A DNA stretch of 64,000 bases, taken from the IMG/VR virus record IMGVR_UViG_3300034355_001008. The stretch is one strand, 5' to 3'. Shown here one piece after another: positions 40,882-58,191 of the stretch. Position numbers and translations under genes: made by a program. Each line of letters opens with the position of its first letter. The first letter of the stretch is position 1. The notes beneath the pieces are model-generated. The model saw only the letters and a list, made by a program, of their open reading frames with translations, was not told the DNA's origin and searched no databases. Source of the DNA: a virus (Duplodnaviria > Heunggongvirae > Uroviricota > Caudoviricetes).

Positions 40882-43509
40882 ATGGCATTACAATTAAACG
40901 ATAGGGTAAAAGAATCTTCTATTACAACTGGAGTTGCGCCTATTGTATTAACTGGAGCTTCAACTGGATATCAAAATGTTGCTTCAAGCATATCAACATC
41001 TAATACTTTTCCATATGTTGTTGAATTAGTTGGTGGATCTGAGTGGGAAATTGGTATTGGCCAATATGTAAGTTCTAATAATTCAATAATACGAACTCAG
41101 ATATTAAACAGTTCAAATAGTAGTAATATAGTAAATTTTTCAGCTGGAACAAAAAACGTATTTATATCTGTTCCTGCTGTATATATGGCATTAACTGCTA
41201 GTGGATTATCTCAATTTTCTTCTACTACTAGTGCTGAATTGGCAAGTATAATTTCTGATGAAACTGGATCGGGTAAATTAGTATTTTCAAATAATGCAAT
41301 TTTAGTTACGCCAGATATTGGTAGAGCTAATGGCACATCATTAACATTATCTGGAGATTTATCGGTAACTGGAAATGTTTATTTAAGCGGAAATGTTACT
41401 ACATTAAGTTCTAATAATCTTTCTATTAATGATTCGTTAATTTATCTTGCACAGGATAACCCAGCTAATCTACAAGATATTGGCATTGTTGGTCATTTTA
41501 CAACTGATCATTATCAGCATACTGGATTTGTTAGAGATGCCAGTGATGGAGTTTGGAAATTATTTTCTAATGTTTCTAGCGAACCAACAACTACAATAGA
41601 TTTTACTGGTGCTATATATGACACAATTCAAGTTGGATCGGTAAATACATCAAATGCCATTTTTTCTACTGCAAATGGCTCTGCGCCGTTTACAGTTGTA
41701 TCTAATACCTTAGTATCAAATCTTAATGCGGATCTTCTTGACGGACAACATGGAACGTATTATACTGGATTAACCAGTTCTGCATTTAATCAAGCCAATT
41801 CAGCATATACAACTGCTAATACTGGAGTTTTTATTGGCCAAGGAGCGTTTACTCAGGCTAATGCTGCATACATGCAAGCTAATACTTCATTAATTGTTGG
41901 GCAATCTGCATTTAGTCAAGCTAATGCTGCTTATAACAAAGCAAATACAGTTACCTCTGGATTAACTCCTACCTCTATTCAAACTGCTAATTATACAGCT
42001 GCTGTTAATGATTTAGTTCGTTGCAATACAGCTGCTGGCGCATTTTCTGTAACCTTCCCTGCTAGTCCGGTTGATGGTTCTATAATTGGTGTTGTTGATA
42101 TTGCTGAAACATTTAATAATTATAATTTAACTATTTTGCCAAATGGTAAAAATATAGAAAGCGATTCAACTTCTCTTGCGTTAGATATGAATGGAACTTA
42201 TGTTTCTTTCATATATAATTCTTCTACATCAAATTGGAGATTATTAGAAACTCCAGTTGGCACGTTAACTAGTTCTTCTCTTAAAACCATTACAAATATT
42301 TCTAATGCATACACGATAATTTTATCAGATCTTGGTAAAATTATCAACTGTACGGCTAATACATTTACCGTTGGATTAACAGCAGCTGCGTCGTTGGGTA
42401 GTGGGTTTACTTGTACTATTTGGAATACTGGCTCAGGTGCAATAACGATTGACCCTAATGCGTCTGAAACGATTGATGGTGTTGCTACACTTATTCTTCG
42501 TCAAGGTGAAGGTTTAGCTATCGTTTGTAATGGTACAAATTGGGAAACTGATAATAAAAAACCAATGCGCGGGTATGCTGAGAATTTAGTTTCTACAGCG
42601 GTTAGACCAGTTGCATCCGGCGATAAAGCTGTAGCAATAATGCAACAAAGTACCGCAAGTGGCGCAGGAGCATTGGCTATTGGTTATGGTGCGACTGCGT
42701 CTGCACAAGGTGCAATTGCTATAGGATATGGTACTCCGGTAGCATCTTCAACATATTCTACTGCTATAGGGAGTGCTTCTCTCGGCTATGCATCACAAGC
42801 AGTAACAGGCGCAGGAGCAATGGCACTAGGTGGCTCATACGCTTCCGGTGCTGACAGTTTCGCTGCGGCTATTGGTGATAATACAAGCAGTTATGGGGCG
42901 ACTGGGGCAAATAGTATTGCTATTGGGTATCAAAATAAATCAAGCGGTCAGTATGGAGTTAGTTTAGGATATTTTAATATATCTTCTGGTAGTGCCTCGT
43001 TTACTGTTGGTCTTGGTAACACAGCTTCTGGTGAGTATTCCGCTGCATTTGGTAGATACTCAAGGGCTGCTCAATCTGGAAAATATGCGTTTGGTTCGGC
43101 ACAAAATGCCTCTTGGGCGCAAGGGGGTAAAATTGTATTAAGTGCAGCAACCACAACCACAACAGCCGTAGTATTAACCTCCGATGGTAGTACTGCATCA
43201 ACAACTAACCAACTTATCATAGCAACAAACCAAGCAATGACTTTCTGGGGAACATTGATAGCTAAACAATCTGCCTCTGCAAATATGGCTTCTTATATGT
43301 TTAAAGGTGCTATTGTGAATAATGGCGGAACAGTATCAATTTCAAGTATTTCTTTAGATACAATTGTTGATACCATAGGATTAGGAGCAGTTCCAACTTT
43401 TACTGCCGATAATACAAATAAAGCATTAGCGGTTACAAGTGGATATAAATCAGCTACAAATATTCGTTGGGTTTGTAATATTGATTCAGTTGAATTGACA
43501 TATGCATAA
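40882..43509 (+). CDS. tail fibre-like protein, paralogue 1 (875 aa)
   Basis: QANAAY repeats. Shares a GSGFTCTIWNTGxGAITIDPNASETIDGVATL…NGTNWETDxKKPMRGYAEN block and a GAGAMALGGSYASGxDSFAAAIG block with 49669, 58205 and 59776. Gly/Ser/Thr-rich. Confidence 0.65.
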   Translation: MALQLNDRVKESSITTGVAPIVLTGASTGYQNVASSISTSNTFPYVVELVGGSEWEIGIGQYVSSNNSIIRTQILNSSNSSNIVNFSAGTKNVFISVPAVYMALTASGLSQFSSTTSAELASIISDETGSGKLVFSNNAILVTPDIGRANGTSLTLSGDLSVTGNVYLSGNVTTLSSNNLSINDSLIYLAQDNPANLQDIGIVGHFTTDHYQHTGFVRDASDGVWKLFSNVSSEPTTTIDFTGAIYDTIQVGSVNTSNAIFSTANGSAPFTVVSNTLVSNLNADLLDGQHGTYYTGLTSSAFNQANSAYTTANTGVFIGQGAFTQANAAYMQANTSLIVGQSAFSQANAAYNKANTVTSGLTPTSIQTANYTAAVNDLVRCNTAAGAFSVTFPASPVDGSIIGVVDIAETFNNYNLTILPNGKNIESDSTSLALDMNGTYVSFIYNSSTSNWRLLETPVGTLTSSSLKTITNISNAYTIILSDLGKIINCTANTFTVGLTAAASLGSGFTCTIWNTGSGAITIDPNASETIDGVATLILRQGEGLAIVCNGTNWETDNKKPMRGYAENLVSTAVRPVASGDKAVAIMQQSTASGAGALAIGYGATASAQGAIAIGYGTPVASSTYSTAIGSASLGYASQAVTGAGAMALGGSYASGADSFAAAIGDNTSSYGATGANSIAIGYQNKSSGQYGVSLGYFNISSGSASFTVGLGNTASGEYSAAFGRYSRAAQSGKYAFGSAQNASWAQGGKIVLSAATTTTTAVVLTSDGSTASTTNQLIIATNQAMTFWGTLIAKQSASANMASYMFKGAIVNNGGTVSISSISLDTIVDTIGLGAVPTFTADNTNKALAVTSGYKSATNIRWVCNIDSVELTYA

Positions 43510-43539
43510 TAAATATTTAATTTAGTAAAGGAATAAAAG

Positions 43540-43893
43540 ATGTCAACTTTAAAAAATGGTTCTAGTATTTTTGAGATAACTGGGTTAGGGCAAACTAAAG
43601 TTGCTATAGCAGCCAGCGATATAAATTTACTATTAGGTAATGCATTTACTAAAACTATATCTAGTGCAACCACAATGACAATTAGTAATGTTCCTGCTAC
43701 AAATACGTTAGCATCTTTTATTTTAGATTTAACTAATGGAGGATCCGCTACCATTACTTGGTGGAGTAATCTAAAATGGGTATCTGGAACTGCTCCTACA
43801 TTAACTGCTTCTGGTCGAGATTCTTTAGGTTTTTATACTTACGATAACGGTTCCACTTGGACTGGAGTTCTTATCGGAAAGGATATTAAATGA
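43540..43893 (+). CDS. conserved 117-aa protein of fibre module (paralogue of 51556-51906)
   Basis: MST(L/I)KN…EITGL…TKVA…GGSAT(I/V)TWWS…GTAPTLT(A/S)SGRD shared with the 51556 ORF. Confidence 0.55.
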   Translation: MSTLKNGSSIFEITGLGQTKVAIAASDINLLLGNAFTKTISSATTMTISNVPATNTLASFILDLTNGGSATITWWSNLKWVSGTAPTLTASGRDSLGFYTYDNGSTWTGVLIGKDIK

Positions 43894-46800
43894 GTGTTGA
43901 TAATATTATTATGGCAGCTGGAAGTGGTAGTAGTTCAACTGCTGCTGTTTCTACGAATTCCGATCAATATTATGATAATGTTGCATTATTGATATCTAGT
44001 AATACCGTTATTGATCAATATTTTGCAAACGTATCTTTGTTGTTAACTGGTAACGATTTGCTGGATAAATCTAATTATAAAACGACTATTACAAATAGCG
44101 CTACGGCTGTTACTTCTAACACAACTATTAAAAAATTCGGAACTGGAAGTTTAGATTTTACGACAACTTCTCGATATTTAACTGTTCCTAATACTAATAT
44201 GCAATTCGGTACAGGGGATCTTACGGTAGAATTTTGGTTATATTACAATTCCGCCACCGCTCCTACATATGGTACGTTTTTGGATAATGGAGGTCAGGGC
44301 GTATTTTTTAGTTATGGTGATACTGGTAGTAAATTGTTATTTTTTAATCCATCATATGCTTCTGCAGCAGTTGGATTTGTGCATAATATGGTGAATAATA
44401 CATGGAATCATATAGCATTCGTTAGATATGGAACTTCGGGGTCGATTTACGTCAATGGAACAAGTATAGGATCAGTCACGCTTAGTTCTTCTGCAAATTT
44501 AAATGGCTCTGGGTCTACTGCATATATTGGCGCGTATTCCGGATCTCCTGGATCTTCTTATACAGCTGCTGGATACATTGACGATTTTAGAGTAACAAAA
44601 GGGCTAGCAAGATATACTACTAATTTTACTCCACCAACTGTATCATTTCCAACACATCAAATCGTAGATAGTTCAGTTTATAGATTACCTGTGACAACTT
44701 ACGGTAACGCTAGGATTGATACAGCCAATAAGAAGTTTGGTACTGGTGCTATGTATTTTGATGGCAGTGGGGATTATTTGTTAATTCCTGTAGCGAGTTT
44801 AGGTACTGCTGATTTTACAATCGAAGGTTGGTTTAATAATTCAGCGCAAAATACTGGTATATTTCAATTATTGAATTCCTCATCATTACCGACCGGAGGC
44901 GCTAAACCTCTTGCGCTTGGCGTTTACACAACTAATGTATTTAATTTAGCATACTCTGGCTCAGATGGTATATATTCTACAGGATCTTTTACTCCAAGTA
45001 TTTGGAATCATTTTGCAGTAGTGCGATATAATGGTGTATTAAACGTTTATTTGAACGGTCAACCTGTAGCTGGACATACTAATTTAACTGATACATTTAA
45101 TTATGTAAATACATATTGCTGGGTGGGCGGTATGTTTAATTCAGGATATGTTTATAATGGTTACATAGACGATTTTCGTATAACCAAAGGTGTAGCTAGA
45201 TATACTGCTAATTTTCCTGTTCCTACGACATCATTGCCGACAATACCTCCAACTATCGCAGCTGACCCATGGTGGGGCAATGTATCATTATTATTAGACG
45301 GTACAAGTGTTAAAAATGACCCTTATTGGGGGAATGTAGGATTATTATTAACTGGAGAAACTTTAGCAGACGCTTCTGATCAAAATGTTCCAGTTACAAA
45401 TAACGGAGCAGTAGTAACTACTTCAAAACAAAAATATGGAACTAGTAGTATTCAAGTAGCTTATTCTACTGGAGTTACTGTCCCTGCTTCAGTATTTAAT
45501 TTTGGAACTACAACCGATTTTACTATAGAGTTTTGGGTATATTTAAATTCACGTACATCGTACTCAACCTTTTGCGGTCAATGGGGTAGTACGGTACGAT
45601 TTAATATAATGCTAAATACAAGCTCTAACGCTTATATGGTAGGTATACAATATATTAATACCGGAGGAGCTGATGTGTTTGCCAGTTCTGGTTTCGATTC
45701 TTCAAATTTACCGTTGCAACAATGGAATCACGTTGCTTTTTCAAGATCTGGCTCTACTTGTAAATGTTTTATCAATGGCGTAGGAGCAACACTGTCTAGT
45801 AATCCAAATATTGCACCAATAGGTCCGGTCGGAGTTGGGAATGTTAGTGATCAATTTAGTTATGGAATTGACGGTTATTTTGCTGATTTCAGAGTAACTA
45901 AAAATGTTGCTAGATACATAAGTAATTTTACTGTACCTGACGTAGCATTTTCATCAACTAAAATAGCTGATAGAACTCAAAACAATCTTACAATTACACC
46001 TTATGGCAATGTTCAACTTAGCACTGATGTTAAGAAGAATGGTACTGGTAGTATGTTCTTTGATGGTACTGGGGATTATATAGCTATTACACCCACTACA
46101 AATTTAGTATTAGGTACAAGTGATTTCACAATTGAAGGTTGGTTTTATCAAATAGCTGGAGGGACGTACGCACACATATTTACAACTACCGCTAGTTATC
46201 TGACCGCAAATCAACTTAGAATGACTAATCAAAGTGGCACAACATTATCTGTATTCTCGGGAGGAAGCACCACAATACTCACGGCATCAACATCATACAC
46301 ACAAAATACCTGGAACCATTTTGCATTAGTTCGTAGTGGTACTACCATAACACTATACTTAAACGGCGTATCAGTAGGGTCAAATACTTCGGTATCTACT
46401 AGTTTTGTGGCAGACGCATCGTGGTACGTTGGGTCCGATTCTTTATATAACTATTCTTGGAATGGGTATATTGATGATTTTCGGGTTACCAAAGGCTACG
46501 CCAGATACACCCAAAACTTTACTCCACCTAGCCAGTCATTTGCTACTCAGTATCTTTCCACTGGTTATGATCCAAACTATGTAGATGTTACTTTATTGTT
46601 AAACGGTAATGGAACTAATGGAAGTACAACATTCACAGATTTGAGTAGTAGTCCTAAGACTATTACTAATAATGGTTCAGTAACTACTAACACTGCTATT
46701 AAAAAATATGGTACTGGTAGTATATACTTTAGCGGAACCAACACATTATCAGCAGGTAGTATAGTTCTTGGTACTAACAATTTTACAATTGAGTTTTGGT

Positions 46801-49208
46801 TCAACCAAACCTCACAAATGCCGTATTCGCATTTATTTACCACTACCGCAAGCTATGGTACCGCAAATGGGCTTAGAGTCACAACAGGTGGTTCAAATTT
46901 AACAGTTTTTTCAGCAAGTACAGCGCTAATACAACCAGCTATCACTATATCAAACGGATCTTGGTATCATTTTGCATTAGTTCGTAATGGTACAACGTTA
47001 ACGTTATATCAAAATGGTGTTTCATTAGGATCTACTACCACCTCAATTAGTTTTGTTTCCGATACGTTTATGGTGGGGGGCGATACATCATATCCATATA
47101 ATGGTTATATTGATGATTTTAGGGTAACTAACGGCATCGCTCGTTACACTCAAAACTTCACGCCACCAACTTATCAATTATCAACTGATACTACTGGAAC
47201 TGTAATTGATCCATTAATTGCAAGCACTTCATTGTTATTAAGAGGAAACGGAACTAATGGTAGTACATCGTTTACAGATGAATCGCCTAATAACTTGACT
47301 ATTACTAATAATGGTTCTGTTACTGTTAATACTACTACTAAGAAATATGGTACGGGTAGTATGGCGTTTAGTGGTAGTAATTATTTAAAAAATTCTGGCC
47401 TCGGTTATGTAACAGCGTATGGAACAGCAGATTTTACATTTGAATTTTGGTTTAATTGGTCTAATTCAATCAGTTCAGCTAATCTTATTTTCGATTGCAG
47501 ACCAGACGGTGGTACCGGAAATCATTTTTGTGTATATATTACAAGTGCTAGCATACTACGATTTTTTAGTAATGGCGCTACAGCAATTGAAGGTAGTGGC
47601 ACTATATCTACTAATACTTGGTACCATTTAGCTATTTGTAGAAATAATGGAATCACGAAAATGTTTTTAAATGGAACTCAAACTGGTTCATCATATTCTG
47701 ATTCAAATAATTATACAGGAGTAATTAATGGACCAAGAATTGGCGGTTCTTCTGCTATTAGTGCCGATAGTTTTGTTGGTTACATCGACGATTTCCGTAT
47801 AACCAAAGGCTACGCGCGATATACAGCTAACTTTACTCCACCAACATACGAAGACCCAATCATAACAGGTAATCCAGTTGACTATAATTTTGCTCAAGTC
47901 GCGTTATTAGTAAATGGTAATGGAACCAATGGTAGCACAACGTTTACCGATTCGAGTATCAATAAAACTGCGATTAATGTTACTAATTCGATTACATGCA
48001 ATACGTCCATTAAAAAATTCGGAACTGGGTCCATGTATTATTCTGGAGCAGGTAATTATTTGTCAACAGTTACTTCTGCTGCGTTATTTAATTATGGAAC
48101 TTCCGATCTTACGATAGAAGGATGGTATTATAAACTCGGTACTACTGGTAATGGATTGAATACCTATTTTTCGGCTGGCGCATATACTGATGGTATATTA
48201 TTACGAGAACAAGATGGATTATACATGGGTGGTAGTAATGTTGGTAATGCGGCATTTGAAAGTAATTATTCTACAAATAAATGGTTTCATTTAGCATTCG
48301 TTCGTTTTGGTAATAATATTTCTGTTTATATTAACGGTATTTCTAAGTTATCAATTACTCGATCAACTGCTATAAATCCGGGATCAGCATTAATTTATAT
48401 CGGCGCGGCAGTTCATAATGCAGGTTCAGAAGGATGGTACGGTTATATTGATGATTTTAGAGTAACAAAAGGGCTAGCAAGATATACTGCTAATTTTACT
48501 CCGCAACCATATGAAAATTCAGTTACTCCTGTTATTACGTTAGCTGATTATTATTATGCCAATACTACGCTGCTATTAACTGGAGATAGTGTTGATGGTA
48601 GTAATACGTTTACAGATTTAAGTAGCAGCCATCAAACTATTACAAATATCGGTAATCCTCAAGCCAATACATCTGTTGTAAAATATGGTTTAGGAAGTAT
48701 TTATTTTAACGGTTCTAGCGGCATAAGAACTGCAAATTTAACTTCTACGACGTTAATTGATACTTCTTCTTCGTTTACAGTAGAAGGATGGATTAATATG
48801 CTAGCGACAGGGGAACAAGAAGTAATAGTTATTAACGGAAATGGTAGCGGTAGCGCTGGAATATGTTTAGTTGCTTATGGAACTAGTTTAAAATTTTGGT
48901 ATAATGGATACACGGCTCAAGCTGGGTCAACCGCGACTAGCTTAGGAACTTGGTATCATTTTGCTATAGTTAAATTTGGAACTAATATTAGTTTTTATGT
49001 AAACGGAACATTAGTTTCTTCAACTAATAATCCAACATTTACAGCTGGTACTGCTAATTATGTAGAAATCGGTTCTGTCACATCTGGAGCAACTTGGGAT
49101 GCTAATAGATATTTTACTGGATATTTAGATGACGTTCGTATAACAAAAGGTATAGCTCGTTATACCGGAACGTTTACTCCGCCTACTGCTCCACTACCAA
49201 TATCTTAA
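43890..49208 (+). CDS. giant structural protein with about 8 tandem LamG/concanavalin-A-like repeats (1772 aa)
   Basis: A unit of about 190-200 aa starts …LLL(N/T)G(N)GTNGSTTFTD and ends GYIDDFR(V/I)TKGxARYTxNFTPPT. It is repeated at protein positions ~238, 440, 650, 845, 1040, 1250, 1450 and 1750. Confidence 0.65.
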   Translation: MSVDNIIMAAGSGSSSTAAVSTNSDQYYDNVALLISSNTVIDQYFANVSLLLTGNDLLDKSNYKTTITNSATAVTSNTTIKKFGTGSLDFTTTSRYLTVPNTNMQFGTGDLTVEFWLYYNSATAPTYGTFLDNGGQGVFFSYGDTGSKLLFFNPSYASAAVGFVHNMVNNTWNHIAFVRYGTSGSIYVNGTSIGSVTLSSSANLNGSGSTAYIGAYSGSPGSSYTAAGYIDDFRVTKGLARYTTNFTPPTVSFPTHQIVDSSVYRLPVTTYGNARIDTANKKFGTGAMYFDGSGDYLLIPVASLGTADFTIEGWFNNSAQNTGIFQLLNSSSLPTGGAKPLALGVYTTNVFNLAYSGSDGIYSTGSFTPSIWNHFAVVRYNGVLNVYLNGQPVAGHTNLTDTFNYVNTYCWVGGMFNSGYVYNGYIDDFRITKGVARYTANFPVPTTSLPTIPPTIAADPWWGNVSLLLDGTSVKNDPYWGNVGLLLTGETLADASDQNVPVTNNGAVVTTSKQKYGTSSIQVAYSTGVTVPASVFNFGTTTDFTIEFWVYLNSRTSYSTFCGQWGSTVRFNIMLNTSSNAYMVGIQYINTGGADVFASSGFDSSNLPLQQWNHVAFSRSGSTCKCFINGVGATLSSNPNIAPIGPVGVGNVSDQFSYGIDGYFADFRVTKNVARYISNFTVPDVAFSSTKIADRTQNNLTITPYGNVQLSTDVKKNGTGSMFFDGTGDYIAITPTTNLVLGTSDFTIEGWFYQIAGGTYAHIFTTTASYLTANQLRMTNQSGTTLSVFSGGSTTILTASTSYTQNTWNHFALVRSGTTITLYLNGVSVGSNTSVSTSFVADASWYVGSDSLYNYSWNGYIDDFRVTKGYARYTQNFTPPSQSFATQYLSTGYDPNYVDVTLLLNGNGTNGSTTFTDLSSSPKTITNNGSVTTNTAIKKYGTGSIYFSGTNTLSAGSIVLGTNNFTIEFWFNQTSQMPYSHLFTTTASYGTANGLRVTTGGSNLTVFSASTALIQPAITISNGSWYHFALVRNGTTLTLYQNGVSLGSTTTSISFVSDTFMVGGDTSYPYNGYIDDFRVTNGIARYTQNFTPPTYQLSTDTTGTVIDPLIASTSLLLRGNGTNGSTSFTDESPNNLTITNNGSVTVNTTTKKYGTGSMAFSGSNYLKNSGLGYVTAYGTADFTFEFWFNWSNSISSANLIFDCRPDGGTGNHFCVYITSASILRFFSNGATAIEGSGTISTNTWYHLAICRNNGITKMFLNGTQTGSSYSDSNNYTGVINGPRIGGSSAISADSFVGYIDDFRITKGYARYTANFTPPTYEDPIITGNPVDYNFAQVALLVNGNGTNGSTTFTDSSINKTAINVTNSITCNTSIKKFGTGSMYYSGAGNYLSTVTSAALFNYGTSDLTIEGWYYKLGTTGNGLNTYFSAGAYTDGILLREQDGLYMGGSNVGNAAFESNYSTNKWFHLAFVRFGNNISVYINGISKLSITRSTAINPGSALIYIGAAVHNAGSEGWYGYIDDFRVTKGLARYTANFTPQPYENSVTPVITLADYYYANTTLLLTGDSVDGSNTFTDLSSSHQTITNIGNPQANTSVVKYGLGSIYFNGSSGIRTANLTSTTLIDTSSSFTVEGWINMLATGEQEVIVINGNGSGSAGICLVAYGTSLKFWYNGYTAQAGSTATSLGTWYHFAIVKFGTNISFYVNGTLVSSTNNPTFTAGTANYVEIGSVTSGATWDANRYFTGYLDDVRITKGIARYTGTFTPPTAPLPIS

Positions 49209-49218
49209 GGAATAAATA

Positions 49219-49659
49219 ATGGAAATAGCACAAATAAATAACGATGTAATAATTCAAATTGGCCACTATAAACAAATGTTTCCAAATGTATCTTTTCCAT
49301 CAACTGGACCAGACGAAAGTTTTATGGAAACAAATTCTTGTGTTGGTGTTACAGTATGGAAACCTCACGATAAAATTACGCAGAAATTAGTTTCGTGCGC
49401 TCCATATATTGAGGATAATCAAGTTTTTACCGTAGAAGTTGTTGATAAAACGCAAGAGGATTTAGATTTTGACAACCTAAATACTGCTAATGAAATTCGA
49501 GTAAAACGTAATAATTTGTTAATTGCTTCTGATTGGACTCAAGTTGCTGATGCTCCAGTTGATAAAGTTGCTTGGGCAACTTTTAGACAGGAATTAAGGG
49601 ATATTACTGTTCAGGAGCAATTTCCGTCTACTATTGTTTGGCCAAATACACCAGAATAA
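49219..49659 (+). CDS. putative tail-fibre assembly/chaperone-like protein (paralogue of 57709-58191)
   Basis: C-terminal NLLIASDWTQVADAPVDKVAWATFRQELRDIT compares with LLKDSDWTQVVDATADKTAWLAYRQELRDIT in the paralogue. Resembles the C-termini of Tfa-type fibre assembly proteins. Confidence 0.4.
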   Translation: MEIAQINNDVIIQIGHYKQMFPNVSFPSTGPDESFMETNSCVGVTVWKPHDKITQKLVSCAPYIEDNQVFTVEVVDKTQEDLDFDNLNTANEIRVKRNNLLIASDWTQVADAPVDKVAWATFRQELRDITVQEQFPSTIVWPNTPE

Positions 49660-49668
49660 GGGATACAA

Positions 49669-51546: not shown

Positions 51547-51555
51547 GGAATAATA

Positions 51556-51906
51556 ATGTCAACAATAAAAAATACCAGTGGCGTCTATGAAATTACAGGT
51601 TTAGCTGAAACCAAAGTTGCAATGTCAGCAAGTGCAATAGATTTATCGCTTGGTAATTATTTTAGTAAAACTATTTCCGGAGCGACTACGCTTACTATTT
51701 CAAATACCCCAACAACTGGAACCGTTGCTGAATTTGTATTGGATTTAACTAATGGCGGATCGGCTACAGTTACTTGGTGGTCTGGAGTAAAATGGGTTGG
51801 AGGAACTGCTCCAACTTTAACATCTTCTGGTAGGGATGTGCTTGCATTTTTTACGCATGATGGCGGAACGACTTGGACTGGAGTTGTAAATAAGGATTTT
51901 AAATAA
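51556..51906 (+). CDS. conserved 116-aa protein of fibre module (paralogue of 43540-43893)
   Basis: See 43540-43893. Confidence 0.55.
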   Translation: MSTIKNTSGVYEITGLAETKVAMSASAIDLSLGNYFSKTISGATTLTISNTPTTGTVAEFVLDLTNGGSATVTWWSGVKWVGGTAPTLTSSGRDVLAFFTHDGGTTWTGVVNKDFK

Positions 51907-54900
51907 TGAGCGTTAAAAAAGTCATACAAGGAATGTTAGGCGGAGGAACGTCAAGTTCATCTGTTGCTGCTACTGCTTATAATATAGAAGATCCATATTT
52001 TAATAATGTTAGTTTATTAGTAACTAGCGAAGTTGAAGATCCTAATTGGTCATCAGTTAAGTTATTAATGTCAGGAGAAGATTTATTAGATCATTCTACT
52101 AACGCATACGCATTAACAATGACTAATACTGTATCTGTTAATACTGCATACAATAGATATGGTGCTGGAAGTTTGTATTTTGATGGAACGAGTAAGTTAT
52201 ATAATTATTCAAATTATTTAATAGGTGCTACCGATAATACATTTACTGTTGAGATGTGGGTGTATATGACTGCTGCTCCTTCTGGCACTTATAGTACAGT
52301 TCCTTCTGGAATAGCTCTTAATAGTACTGGAGGTACTCATTATACTTCCTTTGGCGTATTGCCTAATAGAAAGTTGGGTATGTATTATTATCCAGGAACG
52401 AATAGTTATGCTACTACGGTATTAAATCTTAATCAATGGTATCACATAGCTGTTTCTGTATCGAATAATACTATTAAATATTTTATTAATGGAGTACAAG
52501 ATGCTACGGATTTTCCTACTTTAACTAACAGAAGCGGCGATGCTACTGGATTTGAAATTGGGACAAATTCATACACTACATTTACAGGTTACATAGATGA
52601 CCTAAGAGTAACAAATGGAGTTGCTAGATACACTGCTAACTTTACTCCGCCAACTACTTCGTTACCTGGATACATTACAGATAAATCGAATCTGAATAAT
52701 TCGTTTACTGTTAAAGGTAATACTGCAATTAATACCACAACTAAAAAATATGGTAATAGTTCTGTATATTTTGATGGTACAAATAGCTATGTTACTGTAC
52801 CGCACAGACAAGATTTGGAATTTGGTAGTGCTGATTTTACTGTAGAATGGTGGATGAATTGTACAGCAGTAAGAACGCAGGGCATTTATGTTAAAGGTTA
52901 TCACAATATACAAATAGGGATATATAACACGACATTACAAGTAAACGATTCATATGAAAGAGTCATAGGATACAGTAATTCCTCATTTGTAACTAATGTG
53001 TGGTATCATGTTGCTGTTGTTAGGCAAGGTAACATGATTCACATTTACATAAATGGTAATTTAGATAACTCGTTAACGTGCACTGGCACTGATGTATTTA
53101 CAGGAACAGATCCAGTTTGTATCGGGGCTGATAATTCAGTTGGTATATCTGGATATTTTAGTGGATATATCGACGATTTGCGTGTAACATCAGGAATCGC
53201 TAGATACACTGGACCATTTACTCCTCCTATTGAAGGATTATCAACTACTGTCCCAACTACTGATCCGTATTTTAATAATGTAACTTTACTTTTAAATGGA
53301 GATACAGAAGATGTAGATCCATATTGGTCAAGCGTTTCGTTATTATTGTCAGGCGATGGCGCTAATACTAGCACTACATTTACAGATTCATCTACTAATA
53401 ATTTATCAATTACTAATAGTAGCACCGTTTCCATTAACGCATCAATTAAGAAATATGGAACTGGTAGTATGTATTTTGATGGAGCTGGTAATGTTTTAAC
53501 AGTTAGTAATTTTCCAGTTCTTGGAACTGGAGATTTTACAATTGAAACTTGGGTATATAAAATTTCTGGTTCAAATAATGGATTTTTGCAGTTATTAAGC
53601 TCTACTACGTGGCCAAGTACAAGTAGCCCGTTAGCATTAGGGCATTATACTGGTGGTGGATCTTGGTTAGTTGATTGTGGCGGATCTGGGCAAAAATACT
53701 CATCATTAACAGTTTCTAATAATACTTGGTATCATGTTGCATTAGTTAGAAGTTCTGGTGTAACGAAATTTTATGTAAATGGGGTTTATGATAGTAGTAT
53801 TGGAGCAATAACAGATACTACCAATTACACATATACTTATTTGGGTATAGGTGCATATTGGACAACATCTTACAGTTGGAATGGATATTTAGACGATATT
53901 AGAGTGACCAAAGGCATAGCTCGTTATACGGCTAACTTTACTCCGCCAACTGCTAGATTACCATCATTACAAGTTTATGATAAATCTAATAAATTAGTTC
54001 CAATAACTCCATATGGTAATGCTAGGATTAATTCTTCTACTGTAAAATATAATACTGGTTCAATATATTTTGATGGAACAGACGATCGTATTATTATAAA
54101 TTCGTCTACGATATTAACTGGTGATTTTACTATAGAAGCTTGGGTAAACAGATCAACGTTATCGGATAATCGAGTATTAGCTGGTTCTGGTAGTACTGGA
54201 TGGGTGGGTTGGAATAACAATACTACATTTTTTGTAGAAACTCTCACTGAAAATGGTACATTTACGATAGCCAATACTACAGATTTATGGGCGCATTATG
54301 CTATAGTGCGGAGTTCTGGAGTAATTAGAGTTTTCGTTAATGGCGTTATGGCATCACAATCAATAACAAATTCCACAGGAACATTAACGATTGCTCAAAT
54401 TAACGGACAAGGTAACGGGTATTTGTTTACAGGTTACATTGACGATTTTAGAATCACTAAAGGAGTAGCTAGATACACAGCAACATTTACTCCACCAGCT
54501 AGAGCGTTACCAACATTATTAGATCAAAATATAGATCCATATTACGATAAAGTGGGGTTATTATTAAGCGGCGATCCATATGACGATCCATTTTATTCTA
54601 ATGTTAAATTGTTAATGAATGGTAATGATTTACTCGATAAATCTCCTTCACCAGTAACGCTTACAACAAACGGTAGCGTTGCAGTAACTGCAAATACTAG
54701 AATATCTGGCTCAGGAAGCATATATTTTGACGGTTCTAGTTATCTGTCGCTTTCATTAAGCACAACCGCCGCATTTACTTTTGAGTGTTGGTTTTATCGA
54801 ACAGCAGCAGTATCAAGCGCAAGTTTTAATTTTTTTATAGGTACTTCTGGAACGGGTATTGCATTTTATAATAATGGTTCAACTATTAGAGTTGGTAGTC

Positions 54901-57701
54901 AAGCATTTACCGTGCCAGACTTAATTAACCAATGGGTACATTTAGCCGTCACCAGAGATTCTTCTAATAATATTCGAGTATTCTTTAATGGAATTGAATC
55001 AATAACTGGCACTTTAAATGAAGCAGGTACATTTGGTTGGACTAGAATTGGTGCATACAATACTATGTATTTTTTCCAAGGATATATGGATGATATTAGG
55101 CTTACTAATGATGTCGTTAGATACACCTCAAATTTCGTTCCTCCTACCTCATTATCGTTTAATAATATATCAGATAAATCGCAATATGCTAATACAGTTA
55201 TATTAACTGGCGATACCAAAGTTGATACAAATGTAAAAAAATATGGATATGGGTCGATATATTTTGATGGTGCAGGTGATAAATTACAAGTTTCTAGAGA
55301 TAATATTAATTTAAGTTTCGGGGATTTTACATACGAATCCTGGATTTATCCAACTAATTCTTCTGGAGCCGGTACACTAATAACAACTGGAGCGGATTTA
55401 TCAGCTTACTATGACTGGTTTAATATATGGCAAGTTGGTACAAGCATTAGATTATATATTAACGGAACTACTGGCGGATGGAATATAGCAGGTGGAACAA
55501 ACGTAGCTGGTGTAACGGTAAATGCTTGGAATCATATAGCATTCGTTAGATATGGAATTAATTTTTATTTATTTATAAATGGCGAACAAAAATGGACGAC
55601 TACGTCATCTGAAAATTTAAACGGTAATACTCCATTCAATAACATTTATATTGGGGGTTCAGCTAGCGGTTCTGTACCATATACTGGTTACATGGATGAC
55701 ATTCGTATCACAAAAGGTGTCGCTAGATATATAACTAATTTTACTCCACCCAGAAGATCTTTGCCAACTGCAGGTTTACCAACTATTACCACAAATTATG
55801 TGGATGATGTATTTAATGTGTATGCTTATGCTGGAACTAGCGCAAAAAATGATATTAAAACTGGAATCAATTTAACTAACGAAGGAGGTTTAGTTTGGAT
55901 TAAATCTAGAGATAATTCTATTTTTGGCGGTAATTCTTTGTATGATACAGTAAGAGGCAAACAATATCTTTTAAGTTGTTCTGGTGATGGATCGCAAGTG
56001 GCTACAAGTGCTCAAGTTAATACATACGACGGAACAAATAACTTCCTTTCGTTTAATTCAGATGGATTTTCTTTAGGAGCAGATTCTTGGTATTACAAAA
56101 ATAATAGCGGGAATTCTTATGTAGCTTGGACTTTTAAACGAGCTCGTAAGTTTTTTGATGTAGTGACAACAACAAACGGTGGTAATGTAACAATAACCCA
56201 CTCTCTTGGAACAGCTCCTGGAATGATTTTAGCAAAACGTATAGATTCTTCTGAAAACTGGTGGGTATATCACCGAGGTTTTGCCAATACCGACTTAGCA
56301 AATTGTGACCTATTAAAGTTGAATCTGACAGATGCAGTAGTAACAGGAAACGGCACATTTGGTAATGTTACAGCTTCAAACTTTTTCTTTAGAGGAAATT
56401 CAGGTGGTGCTTACGTTTTTTATTTATTCGCCCACGATCCGTCAGCAGATGGAATTATCCAGTGCGGGTCTTTTACTGCGTCAAACGATTTGGTTATAAA
56501 CCTTGGTTGGGAACCACAGTTTATAATGGTAAAAAGGACTAATGGTACAGGGGATTGGGAAATATTAGATACGACCCGTGGTTGGAAATGGGGCAATAAC
56601 TACGATTCGGCGGTAGCTAAGGTGTTGTGCGCTAACCTTTATGGAACTGAATCTGCTGAAAAATCCGCAGCATCATCTATATCACCATACAGCTCTGGGT
56701 TTAGGATTCCTGGTTATGGTGGCTGGAGCGCCGATTTCATTTATATGGCAATCCGTCGCCCAAACAAGCCGCCTACAACGGGGACGCAGGTGTTTAGTCC
56801 TGTTGCTAGAACAAATACTGGAGCTGCTACTACGGTTTCCTCTGGGTTTCCTGTAGATACAGTAATACATGGTAGAAGAGCATCTGGTGGTTTATATTGG
56901 ATGAATCGGATAACTGGAAATTCTTTATATATGAATTCTAGCTCTGCAGCAGTTGAAGCAACTACATATACTGGATTTGATTCATCTACAGGAATAAAAT
57001 TGGATTCTTCCAATTTTAACGATACACCTTTTGTTGATTATTTTTTTAAACGTGCGCCTGGATTTTTTGATGTGGTTTGTTGGACTGGAACTGGATCAAC
57101 TCCTACTATATATCATAAATTAGGGGTAACTCCGGAAATGATTATTATTAAGTCAAGAACTAATGATACGATTGTTGGTAATAATTGGTTGACGTGGGTT
57201 GCTGGGTTAAAAAATGGAAATTATGTAAACCTTTCAACCGGAGGAAACTGGCCGATGGCGATATCGTTAAATTCTAACGGTGACATGGGAACGTATAATG
57301 GTTGGATGACAGTAAATAACACTACGAACATTCAACCTACATATCATTACAGCACCGGAGTTAACTATATCGCTTATTTTTTCGCTTCTTGCGCCGGAGT
57401 AAGTAAAATCGGTTCTTATACAGGAAATGGTGGAACTCAAACAATTAATTGCGGTTTTGCATCTGGAGCTAGGTTCGTTCTCATTAAACGAACAAACTCT
57501 ACAGGTGATTGGTATGTATGGGATTCCGCTAGAGGTATTGTTGGAGCTAACGACCCGCATTTATCTTTTAACACATCGTCAGCGGAAGTAACAACTGACG
57601 ATTCGGTAGATCCACATAGTAGCGGTTTTACTGTTAATCAGCTTGCAGCTACAAATATAAACGTATTAAATGCATCTTACATTTTCTTAGCAATAGCATA
57701 G
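51906..57701 (+). CDS. giant structural protein with about 9 LamG-like repeats plus a distinct ~650-aa C-terminal region containing three internal repeats of ~230 aa (1931 aa)
   Basis: Same GYIDD(L/F)R(V/I)T(K/N)GxARYTxNFTPPT repeat ends as 43890-49208. The C-terminus has three copies of a …FFDVV…TGxG…I.H.LG…P..I..K…W.V… unit. Confidence 0.65.
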   Translation: MSVKKVIQGMLGGGTSSSSVAATAYNIEDPYFNNVSLLVTSEVEDPNWSSVKLLMSGEDLLDHSTNAYALTMTNTVSVNTAYNRYGAGSLYFDGTSKLYNYSNYLIGATDNTFTVEMWVYMTAAPSGTYSTVPSGIALNSTGGTHYTSFGVLPNRKLGMYYYPGTNSYATTVLNLNQWYHIAVSVSNNTIKYFINGVQDATDFPTLTNRSGDATGFEIGTNSYTTFTGYIDDLRVTNGVARYTANFTPPTTSLPGYITDKSNLNNSFTVKGNTAINTTTKKYGNSSVYFDGTNSYVTVPHRQDLEFGSADFTVEWWMNCTAVRTQGIYVKGYHNIQIGIYNTTLQVNDSYERVIGYSNSSFVTNVWYHVAVVRQGNMIHIYINGNLDNSLTCTGTDVFTGTDPVCIGADNSVGISGYFSGYIDDLRVTSGIARYTGPFTPPIEGLSTTVPTTDPYFNNVTLLLNGDTEDVDPYWSSVSLLLSGDGANTSTTFTDSSTNNLSITNSSTVSINASIKKYGTGSMYFDGAGNVLTVSNFPVLGTGDFTIETWVYKISGSNNGFLQLLSSTTWPSTSSPLALGHYTGGGSWLVDCGGSGQKYSSLTVSNNTWYHVALVRSSGVTKFYVNGVYDSSIGAITDTTNYTYTYLGIGAYWTTSYSWNGYLDDIRVTKGIARYTANFTPPTARLPSLQVYDKSNKLVPITPYGNARINSSTVKYNTGSIYFDGTDDRIIINSSTILTGDFTIEAWVNRSTLSDNRVLAGSGSTGWVGWNNNTTFFVETLTENGTFTIANTTDLWAHYAIVRSSGVIRVFVNGVMASQSITNSTGTLTIAQINGQGNGYLFTGYIDDFRITKGVARYTATFTPPARALPTLLDQNIDPYYDKVGLLLSGDPYDDPFYSNVKLLMNGNDLLDKSPSPVTLTTNGSVAVTANTRISGSGSIYFDGSSYLSLSLSTTAAFTFECWFYRTAAVSSASFNFFIGTSGTGIAFYNNGSTIRVGSQAFTVPDLINQWVHLAVTRDSSNNIRVFFNGIESITGTLNEAGTFGWTRIGAYNTMYFFQGYMDDIRLTNDVVRYTSNFVPPTSLSFNNISDKSQYANTVILTGDTKVDTNVKKYGYGSIYFDGAGDKLQVSRDNINLSFGDFTYESWIYPTNSSGAGTLITTGADLSAYYDWFNIWQVGTSIRLYINGTTGGWNIAGGTNVAGVTVNAWNHIAFVRYGINFYLFINGEQKWTTTSSENLNGNTPFNNIYIGGSASGSVPYTGYMDDIRITKGVARYITNFTPPRRSLPTAGLPTITTNYVDDVFNVYAYAGTSAKNDIKTGINLTNEGGLVWIKSRDNSIFGGNSLYDTVRGKQYLLSCSGDGSQVATSAQVNTYDGTNNFLSFNSDGFSLGADSWYYKNNSGNSYVAWTFKRARKFFDVVTTTNGGNVTITHSLGTAPGMILAKRIDSSENWWVYHRGFANTDLANCDLLKLNLTDAVVTGNGTFGNVTASNFFFRGNSGGAYVFYLFAHDPSADGIIQCGSFTASNDLVINLGWEPQFIMVKRTNGTGDWEILDTTRGWKWGNNYDSAVAKVLCANLYGTESAEKSAASSISPYSSGFRIPGYGGWSADFIYMAIRRPNKPPTTGTQVFSPVARTNTGAATTVSSGFPVDTVIHGRRASGGLYWMNRITGNSLYMNSSSAAVEATTYTGFDSSTGIKLDSSNFNDTPFVDYFFKRAPGFFDVVCWTGTGSTPTIYHKLGVTPEMIIIKSRTNDTIVGNNWLTWVAGLKNGNYVNLSTGGNWPMAISLNSNGDMGTYNGWMTVNNTTNIQPTYHYSTGVNYIAYFFASCAGVSKIGSYTGNGGTQTINCGFASGARFVLIKRTNSTGDWYVWDSARGIVGANDPHLSFNTSSAEVTTDDSVDPHSSGFTVNQLAATNINVLNASYIFLAIA

Positions 57702-57708
57702 GTTAAAT

Positions 57709-58191
57709 ATGGAAATTTTATTAAAAGATACTCAACAAGTAATTACGGATATTGAATTTAAATTAATGTATCCAAATACAAGTTTTCCTCAGATTTTAAC
57801 AGAGGAAATTCTTGCTGAATATAACGCAGTTGTTATTATGGAAGGTCCTCAAGCCGTTCCAACAAATCCATATGAATATAGTTTTAGAAACGGCATTCAA
57901 GAAATTAATGGAAAATGGTTTACAAAATACGAAATCGGTCCAGTATTTGTAGATAATGATAATAAAACAGCAGAAGAACAACTTGCTGAATATAAATATA
58001 AAATAGATACTACATTTGCTAATAGTATAAGACAGCAAAGAAATCAATTATTAAAAGATTCTGATTGGACTCAAGTAGTTGATGCTACAGCAGATAAAAC
58101 TGCATGGTTAGCATATAGACAAGAATTGAGAGATATTACGACTCAAGAATCGTTTCCATTTGATATTCAATGGCCAGAACAACCAACTTAA
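57709..58191 (+). CDS. putative tail-fibre assembly/chaperone-like protein (paralogue of 49219-49659)
   Basis: See 49219-49659. Confidence 0.4.
   Translation: MEILLKDTQQVITDIEFKLMYPNTSFPQILTEEILAEYNAVVIMEGPQAVPTNPYEYSFRNGIQEINGKWFTKYEIGPVFVDNDNKTAEEQLAEYKYKIDTTFANSIRQQRNQLLKDSDWTQVVDATADKTAWLAYRQELRDITTQESFPFDIQWPEQPT

Follow-up and report, generated by a model that had tools for sequence, protein, structure and literature searches.

Two tandem paralogous modules encoding LamG-repeat giants in a T4-like phage: a probable dock-and-plug system for receptor binding

Two proteins of 1772 and 1931 residues are encoded close together in the genome of an uncultured phage, which raises the question of what such giants do and how they would be mounted on a virion. 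The window analysed here is a 64 000-nucleotide stretch of DNA (IMG/VR record IMGVR_UViG_3300034355_001008) from a metagenomic T4-like phage of ∼214 kb. Its assignment as T4-like comes from a DNA polymerase that is ∼45% identical to cyanomyophage polymerases and from further genes in the window for UvsX, a gp41-like helicase, primase and NrdAB; in one relative (L055) the genes for T4 gp13, gp14 and gp15 adjoin the same type of module. The giants belong to a tightly packed 21 kb operon of 11 genes (40882–61863, on the forward strand, as are all of the genes and protein segments given below) with intergenic gaps of -4 to 30 nt. The initial annotation of this DNA had described eight ORFs as two modules, A and B, each consisting of a fibre paralogue, an ∼116-residue protein, a giant and a Tfa-like protein; an ORF check returned exactly the coordinates and lengths that it had given, and the gene order is identical in the two modules. 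The gene set does not end at position 58191, as had been proposed, but continues in the same operon with C1, C2 and a 97-residue gene up to a strong hairpin terminator at 61876–61901 (no strand assigned; 11-bp stem with A and T runs on either side). This is the top-ranked terminator-like site in a scan of positions 42600–62500; here C3 and a Gp80-like gene converge and the 11-gene unit comes to its end. Counting against the reading developed below, the T4 late-promoter motif TATAAATA showed no enrichment and none was placed upstream of the operon. A glycan cluster (14890–22915) lies ∼18 kb upstream of the modules, with the primase, thymidylate synthase and nrdAB genes in between, and the initially suggested link between it and the giants is not supported. 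On balance, we take the products of the operon to be a set of exchangeable host-recognition proteins of this phage, a judgement made jointly with the dock-and-plug reading developed below.

Each module opens with a fibre paralogue that carries YadA-head-like repeats, as both Pfam and alignment confirm, and the operon holds four such genes: A1 (40882–43509, 875 residues; YadA_head, 33 bits), B1 (49669–51546, 625 residues; an ORF with homology to A1), C1 (58205–59758, 517 residues; YadA_head, 38 bits) and C2 (59776–61539, 587 residues; YadA_head, 45 bits in four stretches). A1 consists of a variable N-terminal region of ∼350 residues, a near-invariant domain of ∼100 residues that is common to all four paralogues in the alignment, YadA-head-like repeats, which are expanded in C2, and a conserved C-terminal domain of ∼140 residues. 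A1 is 62% identical to B1 over 533 residues and 52–58% identical to C1 and C2; counted from the other side, C1 shares 46–52% identity with A1 and B1, and C2 48–58% with A1. In the DNA of B1, a 300-nt stretch (repeat family D4) is 80–81% identical to A1 and C1. A1 ends in TAATAA followed by a Shine–Dalgarno sequence before A2 and is thus not fused to it. C1 is not followed by a dock, giant or Tfa gene. The last gene of the operon, C3 (61570–61863, 97 residues), is found with C2-type fibres: in L041 a copy with 80% identity lies directly behind an A1/C-type fibre, and L001 has one with 71%; a Pfam-type profile search found no family match for it. The four fibres and the two giants bring the number of candidate receptor-binding proteins to at least six, rather than two.

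The giants A3 (43890–49208, 1772 residues) and B3 (51906–57701, 1931 residues) together comprise 3703 residues, in line with the >3700 given initially. Both match the Pfam family Laminin_G_3 far above its cutoff of 27.6 bits, A3 with 430 bits (E = 3.7e-130) in eight stretches and B3 with 322 bits (E = 6.7e-97) in six, so that the earlier description of the units as LamG/ConA-like agrees with the profile match. The eight units of A3 span residues 1–250 (nucleotides 43890–44639), 251–446 (44640–45227), 447–684 (45228–45941), 685–881 (45942–46532), 882–1094 (46533–47171), 1095–1319 (47172–47846), 1320–1540 (47847–48509) and 1541–1766 (48510–49187). The array of B3 (51906–55754) has six, at residues 1–250 (51906–52655), 251–442 (52656–53231), 443–682 (53232–53951), 683–865 (53952–54500), 866–1081 (54501–55148) and 1082–1283 (55149–55754). 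The expected count of eight to nine units per giant therefore holds for A3 and fails for B3. The unit-end motif of the GYIDDFRVTKG type, which we write as GY[ILMF][DA]D.R.T..ARY..F.PP, was recovered 14 times, eight in A3 and six in B3. The units are 183–250 residues long (spacings of 183–240) and not ∼195; long and short units alternate at the first four positions of both giants, and the proposed LLLNGNGTNGSTTFTD-type start is found in the long units only, being absent from the short units 2 and 4 of A3 and 2, 4 and 6 of B3. A3 and B3 are 34% identical over ∼1400 residues (for the B3 array, given as residues 1–1300). Individual units are 26–51% identical to each other, with variable stretches between the conserved motifs, which points to old rather than recent duplications. 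The closest homologues of A3 are 43–49% identical, have ∼1570 residues and lie in the same dock–giant–Tfa context; a PDB sequence search with A3 gave one match, at the level of sequence only, to entry 4qvs_A (‘S-layer domain-containing protein’, E = 5.6e-8). PHROG assigns the LamG giants to virion, baseplate and tail families.

B3 differs from A3 in its C-terminal 648 residues (1284–1931; 55755–57701), which match Pfam DUF7483 with 208 bits in two stretches. The initial annotation was right that B3 alone has an extra region of ∼650 residues; it is built not of three ∼230-residue repeats but of six modules of ∼105 residues, five clear and one weak (343–417), each a β-sandwich. These read as two triplets, each of which matches the 330-position DUF7483 model, and an AlphaFold2 (AF2) model of the body is all-β with a pLDDT of 80. 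More than 4274 homologues are found, typically as stand-alone proteins of 620–655 residues. B3 combines a LamG array of the A3 kind with an entire DUF7483 tip protein, and the DUF7483 body is likely to be a distal receptor-binding tip.

Membership of the Laminin_G_3 family suggests that the LamG units may bind carbohydrate. The motifs conserved in all 14 units (W.H.A.VR, GYIDD.R.T and ARY..F.PP) look like fold-core strands, and hence no sugar-binding site can be identified from them. This would also suit arrays that act mainly as a spacer or shaft, setting the reach and flexibility of the appendage rather than acting as lectins, with recognition left to a terminal element (DUF7483 in B3; the last unit or a bound Tfa in A3) or to the A1, B1, C1 and C2 fibres. 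Unit number among homologues ranges from 0 to 12, as in the length-setting repeats of other fibres, and thousands of phages carry the DUF7483 body without LamG. Set against this, the divergence of the units between their motifs fits diversified binding surfaces as well as drift, and Laminin G3 and other concanavalin-fold lectin domains that phages carry on their tail fibres or virion components have been interpreted as adhesion and carbohydrate-recognition modules (PMC7824862). We regard the spacer role, and recognition by those other elements with it, as a tentative alternative; it is compatible with the dock-and-plug part of our explanation.

The functionally telling part of each module is the small protein that precedes the giant, A2 (43540–43893, 117 residues) or B2 (51556–51906, 116 residues), which from the predicted structure would be a docking domain of the gp10/XD type. 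The two are 68% identical, and a profile search places A2 in a family of 13 160 clusters, in keeping with its earlier description as conserved. In the AF2 model of A2 (pLDDT 87) residues 1–20 are disordered and residues 25–117 form a β-sandwich; its best structural matches include the XD domains of TSP4-N, although the fold match is only moderate, and Pfam and PDB sequence searches found no sequence-level relation to gp10. PHROG matches of A2 and B2 fall at the C-termini of ‘tail fiber protein’ families, and the A2-like domain is at the extreme C-terminus in 149 of the best 150 of the 13 160 clusters. Among relatives at 40 IMG/VR loci it mostly forms the C-terminal end of a fibre-like protein of 185–1086 residues and is stand-alone in a few; in L002 it ends a bona fide fibre shaft of 1061 residues. 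This very large family, which lacks a Pfam description, apparently serves as a plug-and-socket for the swapping of fibre tips.

The gene that follows a dock opens with a conserved 12-residue peptide, MSxxDIIMAAAG, whatever body comes after it. In A3 the peptide is MSVDNIIMAAGSG (43890–43928), its ATG overlapping the A2 stop codon (ATGA), and in B3 it is MSVKKVIQGMLGGG (51906–51947), with a start that overlaps the B2 stop by 1 nt. Of 39 non-redundant proteins whose genes come immediately behind an A2-like domain, 36 have a start that overlaps the stop of the dock by 1 or 4 nt; in the whole set, positions 2–13 carry 1.7–2.6 bits each, versus ∼0.8 bits at positions 16–30. The bodies behind the peptide belong to at least three unrelated classes (11 DUF7483, seven LamG and 21 other). 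Variants of the peptide go with variants of the dock: in L001 a B2-like dock (70% identical) precedes a B-like payload that opens with the B-type peptide MSVKNVLQGLVGVN, and behind their A2-like docks L001 and L056 have the A-type MSVDNIIMAAG or MSADNIIMAAG. In 59 loci fetched independently using the DUF7483 body alone, peptide class tracks dock class (ARI 0.63; maximum of 2000 permutations 0.11) and not body class (ARI ≤0.26), and spot checks of individual loci agree. Covariation between neighbouring genes is partly expected from co-inheritance, a concern that the body-cluster control lessens but does not remove. Plug and dock would, on this reading, bind each other physically.

The last gene of each module had been called Tfa-like, and A4 (49219–49659, 146 residues) and B4 (57709–58191, 160 residues) indeed match Phage_tail_APC, the Tfa C-terminus, with 72 and 69 bits; PHROG places A4 in tail fibre assembly families. 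They are 38% identical to each other and appear to be matched to their payloads: in L055, L056 and L057 the gene behind a LamG giant is an A4-type Tfa (52–71% identical), and in L001, L040 and L056 the one behind a DUF7483 protein is a B4-type Tfa (57–72%). In all, a Tfa gene follows the payload in the window, in L001, L055, L056 and L057 and in about 20 other loci. A further point counts against our reading. The usual clients of Tfa chaperones are trimeric fibre tips, whereas a LamG domain as a rule folds on its own as a monomer, and our reading therefore does not account for what A4 does for A3, whose last domain is a LamG unit.

The giants might instead be structural or decoration proteins of the baseplate, neck or head, with A2 and B2 as small independent fibre or knob proteins that are adjacent through operon packing. 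PHROG families matched by A3 and B3 are labelled ‘baseplate wedge subunit’ and ‘virion structural protein’, cyanophage tblastn matches fall under ‘baseplate wedge initiator’ and ‘structural protein’, a 2799-residue ConA-like protein of phiCbK was proposed by its authors to be a head filament (PMC3556154), and the moderate fold match of A2 can be read in the same direction. The PHROG matches are, however, confined to the shared LamG domains, in six to eight stretches each. Structural proteins that were neighbours by packing would not predict conservation of the N-terminal peptide, its overlap with the dock stop or the way it covaries with the type of dock. Bona fide fibre shafts, such as that of L002, terminate in this same dock domain, and a Tfa gene comes after the giants in every relative examined. 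We consider this interpretation unlikely.

We favour, as moderately probable, the explanation that the region encodes two paralogous dock-and-plug modules for receptor binding, each provided with its own Tfa chaperone and assembled from parts of familiar types. Production would begin with a fibre, A1 or B1, followed by the β-sandwich adaptor A2 or B2, which would serve as a socket of the T4 gp10/XD attachment-domain type. A3 or B3, translationally coupled to the adaptor, would be mounted on it through the ∼12-residue plug. The body would then extend as a beads-on-a-string, lectin-like LamG array of eight units in A3, or of six in B3 followed by the six-module DUF7483 tip, and most likely works as a long adhesin that binds host surface polysaccharide multivalently. 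Finally, the payload-matched A4 or B4 would aid folding or assembly of the distal part. Both giants and adaptors are accordingly expected in the virion. As the modules differ in dock and plug variants and in their distal ends, we propose that one virion carries two different adhesins; the distal ends (an extra LamG unit versus DUF7483) make dual receptor specificity a plausible candidate, and different specificities and glycan binding are what we infer from this arrangement.

Shared gene order and clear paralogy could also mean that one module merely duplicates the other, as a redundant or decaying second copy, in a phage of effectively single specificity. This seems improbable: none of the eight ORFs is broken, the copies diverged long ago (34% for A3/B3 and 38% for A4/B4), only B3 has DUF7483, and L001 and L056 keep both module types, each with its own dock and plug variant and Tfa type. 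The tandem duplication claimed at the outset is supported by gene order and paralogy (62, 68, 34 and 38% along the module) but is not a simple one, since B3 is composite and close B-like modules lack LamG, namely those of L001 (HMM search) and L056 (Pfam listing and BLAST), the closest relatives that have such a module. Tandem modules recur in relatives, as B-like then A-like in L001 and L056 and as three to four modules in L057. Other assemblies of the same phage break within a giant gene, as they might if the repeats or the duplication had arisen in the assembly of a metagenomic contig. A1, A3 and B3 are nevertheless on record, exact and at full length, in independent NCBI, JGI and ENA assemblies (three to four contigs each, the longest of 213 894 bp), which argues against misassembly, and the DNA of the repeat units shares only short stretches of 60–80% identity, not enough for an assembler to lose or multiply units; we hold an artefact to be extremely improbable.

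The modules are most readily compared with the branched or adaptor-mounted receptor-binding proteins (RBPs) of the gp10/XD systems: the K1-5/SP6 adapter gp37, G7C gp66/gp63.1, Klebsiella KP32/KP34 RBP1/RBP2 and CBA120 TSP4-N (PMC6872550, PMC13352976, PMC8825819). In both, a small β-sheet domain is the socket, a conserved N-terminal plug (7–11 or more residues there, ∼12 here) precedes an otherwise exchangeable protein, dock and payload genes adjoin and the peptide is specific to a phage group; in K1-5, too, the adapter is a protein of its own. The dock of RBP1 is internal, after an N-terminal anchor, whereas here it is at the extreme C-terminus or a stand-alone protein of 117 residues, so that the geometry is likely to be end-to-end rather than side-branching. 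Payloads there are β-helix depolymerases and here are LamG arrays, DUF7483 and other non-enzymatic folds; the cassette here includes a Tfa chaperone, and its dock–plug interaction is a predicted one. By this analogy, and with the same moderate confidence as for the reading as a whole, the modules would be a new variant of the known system of gp10 domain and conserved peptide.

The giants themselves resemble the multi-LamG proteins of cyanomyophages, jumbo phages and phiCbK-like phages in their Pfam domain and long tandem arrays. More than 2600 homologues have 1100–3100 residues and up to 12 units; tblastn matches occur in Synechococcus, Prochlorococcus, Pelagibacter and Caulobacter phages, with <35% identity to any isolated-phage protein. 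For jumbo phages, an association of lectin domains of the concanavalin fold, Laminin G3 among them, with tail fibres and further parts of the virion has been reported (PMC7824862). Such giants are mostly annotated as ‘hypothetical’ or ‘structural’ without a defined mode of attachment, whereas A3 and B3 have an N-terminal plug, a place between dock and Tfa genes and, in B3, a fusion to DUF7483. The fibre and Tfa cassettes of Mu, P2 and lambda (Caudo_TAP/Phage_tail_APC) share with A4 and B4 the Phage_tail_APC C-terminal domain, a position immediately downstream of the presumed client and a Tfa type that follows client type; the client here is a LamG array or DUF7483 and not a recognisable trimeric tip, and invertible or alternative C-terminal segments are absent. 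Pfam and PHROG searches of the region's proteins found no sequence homology to T4 gp34–38. The proteins, joints and distal domains of the T4 gp34-gp35-gp36-gp37-gp38 series all differ from those described here, while the plan is alike: in a T4-like genome, serial fibre segments are encoded in order, together with a small protein for the joint and a chaperone as the last gene.

The eight open reading frames of the two modules have exactly the coordinates and lengths first reported for them, and the two four-gene sets are paralogous and identical in order: the fibres A1 and B1 share 62% identity (over 533 aa), the small proteins A2 and B2 68%, the giants A3 and B3 34% (over ∼1400 aa) and the Tfa proteins A4 and B4 38%. 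Pfam profiles upheld the LamG, Tfa and fibre assignments (Laminin_G_3, Phage_tail_APC and YadA_head, respectively). The interval given in the initial annotation for the duplicated set, 40882–58191, does hold the eight frames, but the set runs past 58191 to two further fibre paralogues, C1 and C2, and the gene for a 97-aa protein. The 11 genes of this operon are spaced by −4 to 30 nt, and a strong terminator at 61876–61901 closes the unit. Independent NCBI, JGI and ENA assemblies contain identical copies of A1, A2, A3 and B3 (longest contig 213,894 bp), which excludes misassembly. The two-module observation is real, if in part misdescribed. As A1–A2 and B1–B2 are in-frame pairs, read-through or fusion was considered; it was ruled out by the TAATAA and further stops that end A1 and by the Shine–Dalgarno sequence and ATG that each small gene has of its own, and the layout is the same in L001, one of the related contigs (L001–L057) fetched from databases.

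The C-terminal motif of the units, GYIDD.R.T..ARY..F.PP, occurs 14 times in the giants, with eight copies in A3 and six in B3, at the protein level and also at the DNA level (family D3). The Laminin_G_3 profile (PF13385; gathering cutoff 27.6 bits) matches A3 with 430 bits in eight stretches (E = 3.7e-130) and B3 with 322 bits in six (E = 6.7e-97); the Laminin_G_2 and Laminin_G_1 profiles match as well, and a single PDB entry, 4qvs_A, was matched at the sequence level (E = 5.6e-8). These Pfam profiles place the units in the LamG/Concanavalin A-like lectin superfamily. The original count of 8–9 units per giant holds for A3, with eight, but not for B3, for which the protein motif, the DNA family D3 and Pfam agree on six; the unit length is 183–250 aa rather than ∼195 aa. 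In both giants units 1–4 alternate between a long form with a duplicated DPY..NV.LLL.G lead and a short form in which the lead is absent. Pairwise identity among units is only 26–51%, and the duplications are therefore old; recent tandem amplification can be discarded on this figure and on the A3 and B3 units showing no clear one-to-one orthology. Giants with multiple LamG units are common: a search with A3 gave more than 2638 matches of 1100–3100 aa with up to 12 units. Tail fibres and other virion components of phages have been reported to bear concanavalin-fold lectin domains, Laminin G3 included (PMC7824862), and a giant ConA-like protein of phiCbK has been proposed as the head filament (PMC3556154), so that the giants belong to a known kind. 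As first given, the observation is fairly ordinary for large environmental phages, and the dual receptor specificity proposed for the modules is plausible.

The last 648 residues of B3 (1284–1931), initially read as three repeats of ∼230 aa, are a full DUF7483 body (PF24299; 208 bits in two stretches; cutoff 27), built from a ∼105-aa module in five clear copies and one weak copy that can be read as two triplets. Stand-alone proteins of 620–655 aa align with 98% of this body at 40–47% identity. DUF7483 proteins abound, with more than 4274 matches, and those of the typical 620–655 aa consist of the body alone behind a plug, by which we mean the ∼12-residue N-terminal peptide of the protein encoded after an A2/B2-type domain; B3 therefore combines a plug and six LamG units with the whole of a DUF7483 body. 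A single LamG unit precedes DUF7483 in contigs L003 and L007, and LamG is absent from the B-like proteins of L001 and L056. The DUF7483 set is also found in podophage-like contigs (with an SU10 adaptor) and siphophage-like contigs (with a tape measure), and the cassette thus crosses tail morphotypes. In L051 and L053 (Logan SRR14368437 and JGI 3300027499) a DUF7483 tip is accompanied by a distant C-terminal dock upstream and a ∼185-aa protein downstream. A sequence search of the DUF7483 body against solved structures gave zero matches, and a literature search found no paper on DUF7483.

The Phage_tail_APC profile (PF16778; cutoff 26.6 bits) matches A4 with 72.4 bits and B4 with 68.6 bits. The Tfa gene follows the giant after 10 nt in module A and 7 nt in module B, and takes the same place in relatives. 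By profile and position A4 and B4 are Tfa-type tail fibre assembly chaperones, their activity being predicted; Tfa proteins are normally helpers of trimeric tips. The type of Tfa matches the type of payload (the body of the plug-bearing protein), A4-like proteins (52–71%) accompanying LamG giants and B4-like proteins (57–72%) DUF7483 bodies.

The small proteins A2 and B2, which we call docks or sockets, matched no Pfam family at E values up to 0.01, and A2 matched no PDB sequence at E values up to 10. The PHROG alignments of both fall on the C-termini of ‘tail fiber protein’ families. Relatives of A2 at 51–80% identity are encoded on 40 IMG/VR contigs, on most of which the dock is the C-terminal end of a fibre-like protein of 185–1086 aa, for example the 1061-aa Ala/Ser/Thr-repeat shaft protein of L002; among the window and these 40 contigs, a stand-alone dock is found only in the window, L001, L036 and L038. 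A profile search of 1.84 billion representatives gave 13,160 dock clusters, 956 of them at E ≤ 1e-30, and among the best 150 of the 13,160 clusters the dock ends at the C-terminus of the protein, with a single exception. Fold comparison with a model of A2 gave moderate matches to the tailspike of Acinetobacter phage Solidus (6.7), the proximal long-tail-fibre subunit of Klebsiella phage KP1 (6.4), N-terminal fragments of CBA120 TSP4 (6.1 and 6.0) and KP1 gp9 (5.0).

The start of the gene after the dock overlaps the dock stop by 1 or 4 nt in 36 of 39 non-redundant cases, and the 39 downstream proteins share the consensus plug M-[SAT]-x-[RHK]-[DN]-I-[LIV]-M-A-A-A-G. The information content is 1.7–2.6 bits per position at positions 2–13 compared with ∼0.8 bits at positions 16–30. 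Behind the plug the bodies differ and fall into at least three classes: 11 are DUF7483, seven are LamG arrays and 21 are others, some of which resemble propeller repeats by eye. Both A3 (MSVDNIIMAAGSG) and B3 (MSVKKVIQGMLGGG) carry the peptide, and the A-type and B-type variants recur behind A2-like and B2-like docks, respectively, in L001 and L056. LamG is not the usual payload behind an A2 dock, as it occurs in only L001, L003 and L007 among the 40 loci fetched with A2; further LamG giants in a dock context came to light only in the search with A3 itself.

The relation between plug and dock was examined in 80 loci fetched by the DUF7483 body alone, in 59 of which the upstream gene could be resolved. 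Here the N-terminal peptides form 23 classes (e.g. MPLQATSGAASYD, MLSxKLKEAAGNS, MDPxTQxLMMGA and MFSSNSS) and the C-terminal 110 residues of the upstream proteins form ten. Peptide class agrees with dock class with an ARI of 0.63 and an AMI of 0.65 (maximum of 2000 permutations, 0.11), and each multi-member peptide class corresponds to one dock class; the sole exception is an outlier in the largest class (19 loci). Spot checks showed DUF7483 proteins of the MSxxDIxMAAAG type to follow close A2-like domains (190 bits) and those with other peptides to follow only distant dock relatives (35, 26 and 20 bits). Some association of peptide and dock is expected, as neighbouring genes are co-inherited. 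The agreement of peptide class with the DUF7483 body cluster, however, has an ARI of at most 0.26, and body identity is 53% within peptide classes versus 47% between them; this contrast between dock and body speaks for a specific dock–plug relation, as judged from sequence. What the analysis adds is this relation of socket to plug, together with how large the unannotated family of sockets is.

The initial annotation proposed comparing copy number among related phages, and tandem modules are indeed present in L056 (two) and L057 (three to four). The closest A3-type giants are 43–49% identical, ∼1570 aa long and have related N-terminal peptides; in the T4-like contigs L055, L056 and L057 they have an A2-like dock on one side and an A4-like Tfa on the other. 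The module of L055 adjoins gp13, gp14 and gp15, and L056 has a B-like and an A-like module. In L057 (IMG 3300044984 contig, 1–24757) three to four dock/payload/Tfa modules stand in a row, with giants of >1068, 1574 and 2918 aa. As L056 and L057 hold several modules each, tandem arrays are a trait of the phage lineage. The 2918-aa giant carries 12 LamG motifs, and another module of L057 has an 864-aa Mtd_N-containing fibre with an A2-like dock at its end.

Upstream of the operon lies a T4-type replication set: UvsX, a gp41-like helicase, primase, thymidylate synthase, NrdAB and a family-B DNA polymerase that is ∼45% identical to those of Synechococcus myophages. Megablast of the 17-kb region found no close isolated phage; the tblastn matches were all below 60%, with those listed at 27–33%, and confined to LamG domains, and protein matches to isolated phages were below 35% and in LamG domains only, B1 having just short domain matches. 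As no isolated phage is close, we take the window to be a piece of an uncultured T4-like phage of ∼214 kb. A sugar-nucleotide/glycan cluster is encoded on the plus strand at 14890–22915 (two GT2 glycosyltransferases, two GDP-mannose-dehydratase/epimerase-like enzymes, a GHMP kinase and a cytidylyltransferase), followed by a DUF6267 protein (22961–24133, plus strand; E = 1e-99). The suggested link of the giants to this cluster found neither positional nor sequence evidence; the replication and nrd genes separate it from the fibre operon. Between nrdA and the fibre region there is a gene for a SegE-type GIY-YIG homing endonuclease (36059–36481, plus strand; Pfam E = 3.6e-34). The T4 late promoter motif TATAAATA occurs 15 times against 18.7 expected, with none upstream of the operon, and its lack of enrichment and wrong placement dismiss it as a sign of late expression; a sigma-70 scan gave fewer sites than expected.

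YadA_head (cutoff 25 bits) matches A1, C1 and C2 with 33, 38 and 45 bits; B1 has no Pfam match at E values up to 0.01, yet aligns through the same YadA-head-like repeat region. The four fibres (41932–43509, 49669–51546, 58205–59758 and 59776–61539) are conserved over their C-terminal two-thirds and share a nearly invariant domain of ∼100 aa (80–81% at the DNA level over 300 nt, with one 45-nt stretch at 91–93%). They diverge mainly at their N-termini, the stretch before the conserved domain ranging from ∼25 aa in C2 to ∼465 aa in A1. Fibres usually have a conserved anchor and a variable tip, and these four reverse that pattern, which may be due to gene conversion or to different attachment sites. 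The 97-aa protein (61570–61863) is 71–80% conserved in L041 (5521–5814) and L001 (1463–1756) and has no family match. In L041 as in the window, its gene stands directly behind an A1/C-type fibre, pointing to a second type of fibre–partner pair; in L001 it precedes the first fibre gene by ∼600 nt. Divergent from the operon is a 1044-aa frame (37631–40765, minus strand), which the ENA and JGI records annotate as a gene, with tandem repeats rich in Ser, Thr, Ala, Ile, Leu and Asn, a recurring ‘LASIDSCIVSNAAQLNTGIVLLG’ and DNA repeats at 40000–40422. It has no Pfam or PHROG match, and may be another fibre or shaft protein. Homologues of podophage GP4 fibre parts flank the operon on both sides, on the opposite strand, inside this T4-like genome: a Gp80-like gene (61906–62352, minus strand; Pfam Gp80, GP4 ‘fiber I protein gp80’, E = 1.2e-40) and a gp77-like gene (37135–37620, minus strand) with a weak match to the GP4 ‘fiber-tail adaptor gp77’ (E = 1.3e-3).

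Phage host range is set by receptor-binding proteins, and host-range engineering needs knowledge of how these are mounted. We propose a model that rests on the observed order and domain content of the genes, the conservation of the peptide and its covariation with the dock, in which each module would encode one adhesin branch composed of a fibre, a socket (A2 or B2), a plug-bearing giant and a chaperone. The plug would bind the socket, the proteins would be part of the virion, the LamG units would act as lectins, or the arrays might mainly be spacers, and the two branches would differ in specificity. A wider reading, which we consider tentative and on balance doubtful, is that A2/B2 founds a very large, hitherto undescribed family of fibre-end sockets whose co-varying plugs of ∼12 residues make up a general, partly orthogonal ‘connector code’ across myophages, siphophages and podophages, the two orthogonal pairs here routing two giant, probably monomeric LamG ‘tentacles’ (∼30–40 nm) to separate sites. 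If so, a fibre tip could accept any payload, be it a LamG string, DUF7483, a propeller-like body or another, and the ‘tentacles’ would be a type of appendage as yet unseen structurally.

T4 gp34–gp38 homology was absent from the Pfam and PHROG matches of the eight module proteins and C1, and from the Pfam matches of C2 and C3. Among known mechanisms, the nearest is the T4 gp10-like branching domain with a conserved N-terminal docking peptide, as found in K1-5/SP6, G7C, CBA120 and Klebsiella KP32/KP34, which has lately been proven by engineering and was worked out in a small number of groups of coliphages and Klebsiella phages (PMC6872550, PMC13352976, PMC8825819). The likeness is the short conserved N-terminal peptide on the partner, which is independent of the partner body. 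Unlike the gp10-domain systems, the socket described here has no detectable sequence relation to gp10 (Pfam and PDB sequence searches gave no sequence-profile relation of A2/B2 to gp10 domains 2 and 3, the criterion of PMC6872550), it is found at the far end of the fibre or stands alone, the payloads are non-enzymatic β-sandwich arrays and the cassette includes a Tfa. The sequences suggest that thousands of environmental phages follow a similar rule, based on another and much commoner socket at the fibre end, and that this rule explains the exchange of very different tips, giant LamG arrays included. Under such a rule many ‘hypothetical’ giant proteins could be annotated as fibre-tip payloads, tip–fibre pairing would become predictable and chimeric tips could be designed; for the window phage, it predicts that the virion carries six or more candidate adhesins.
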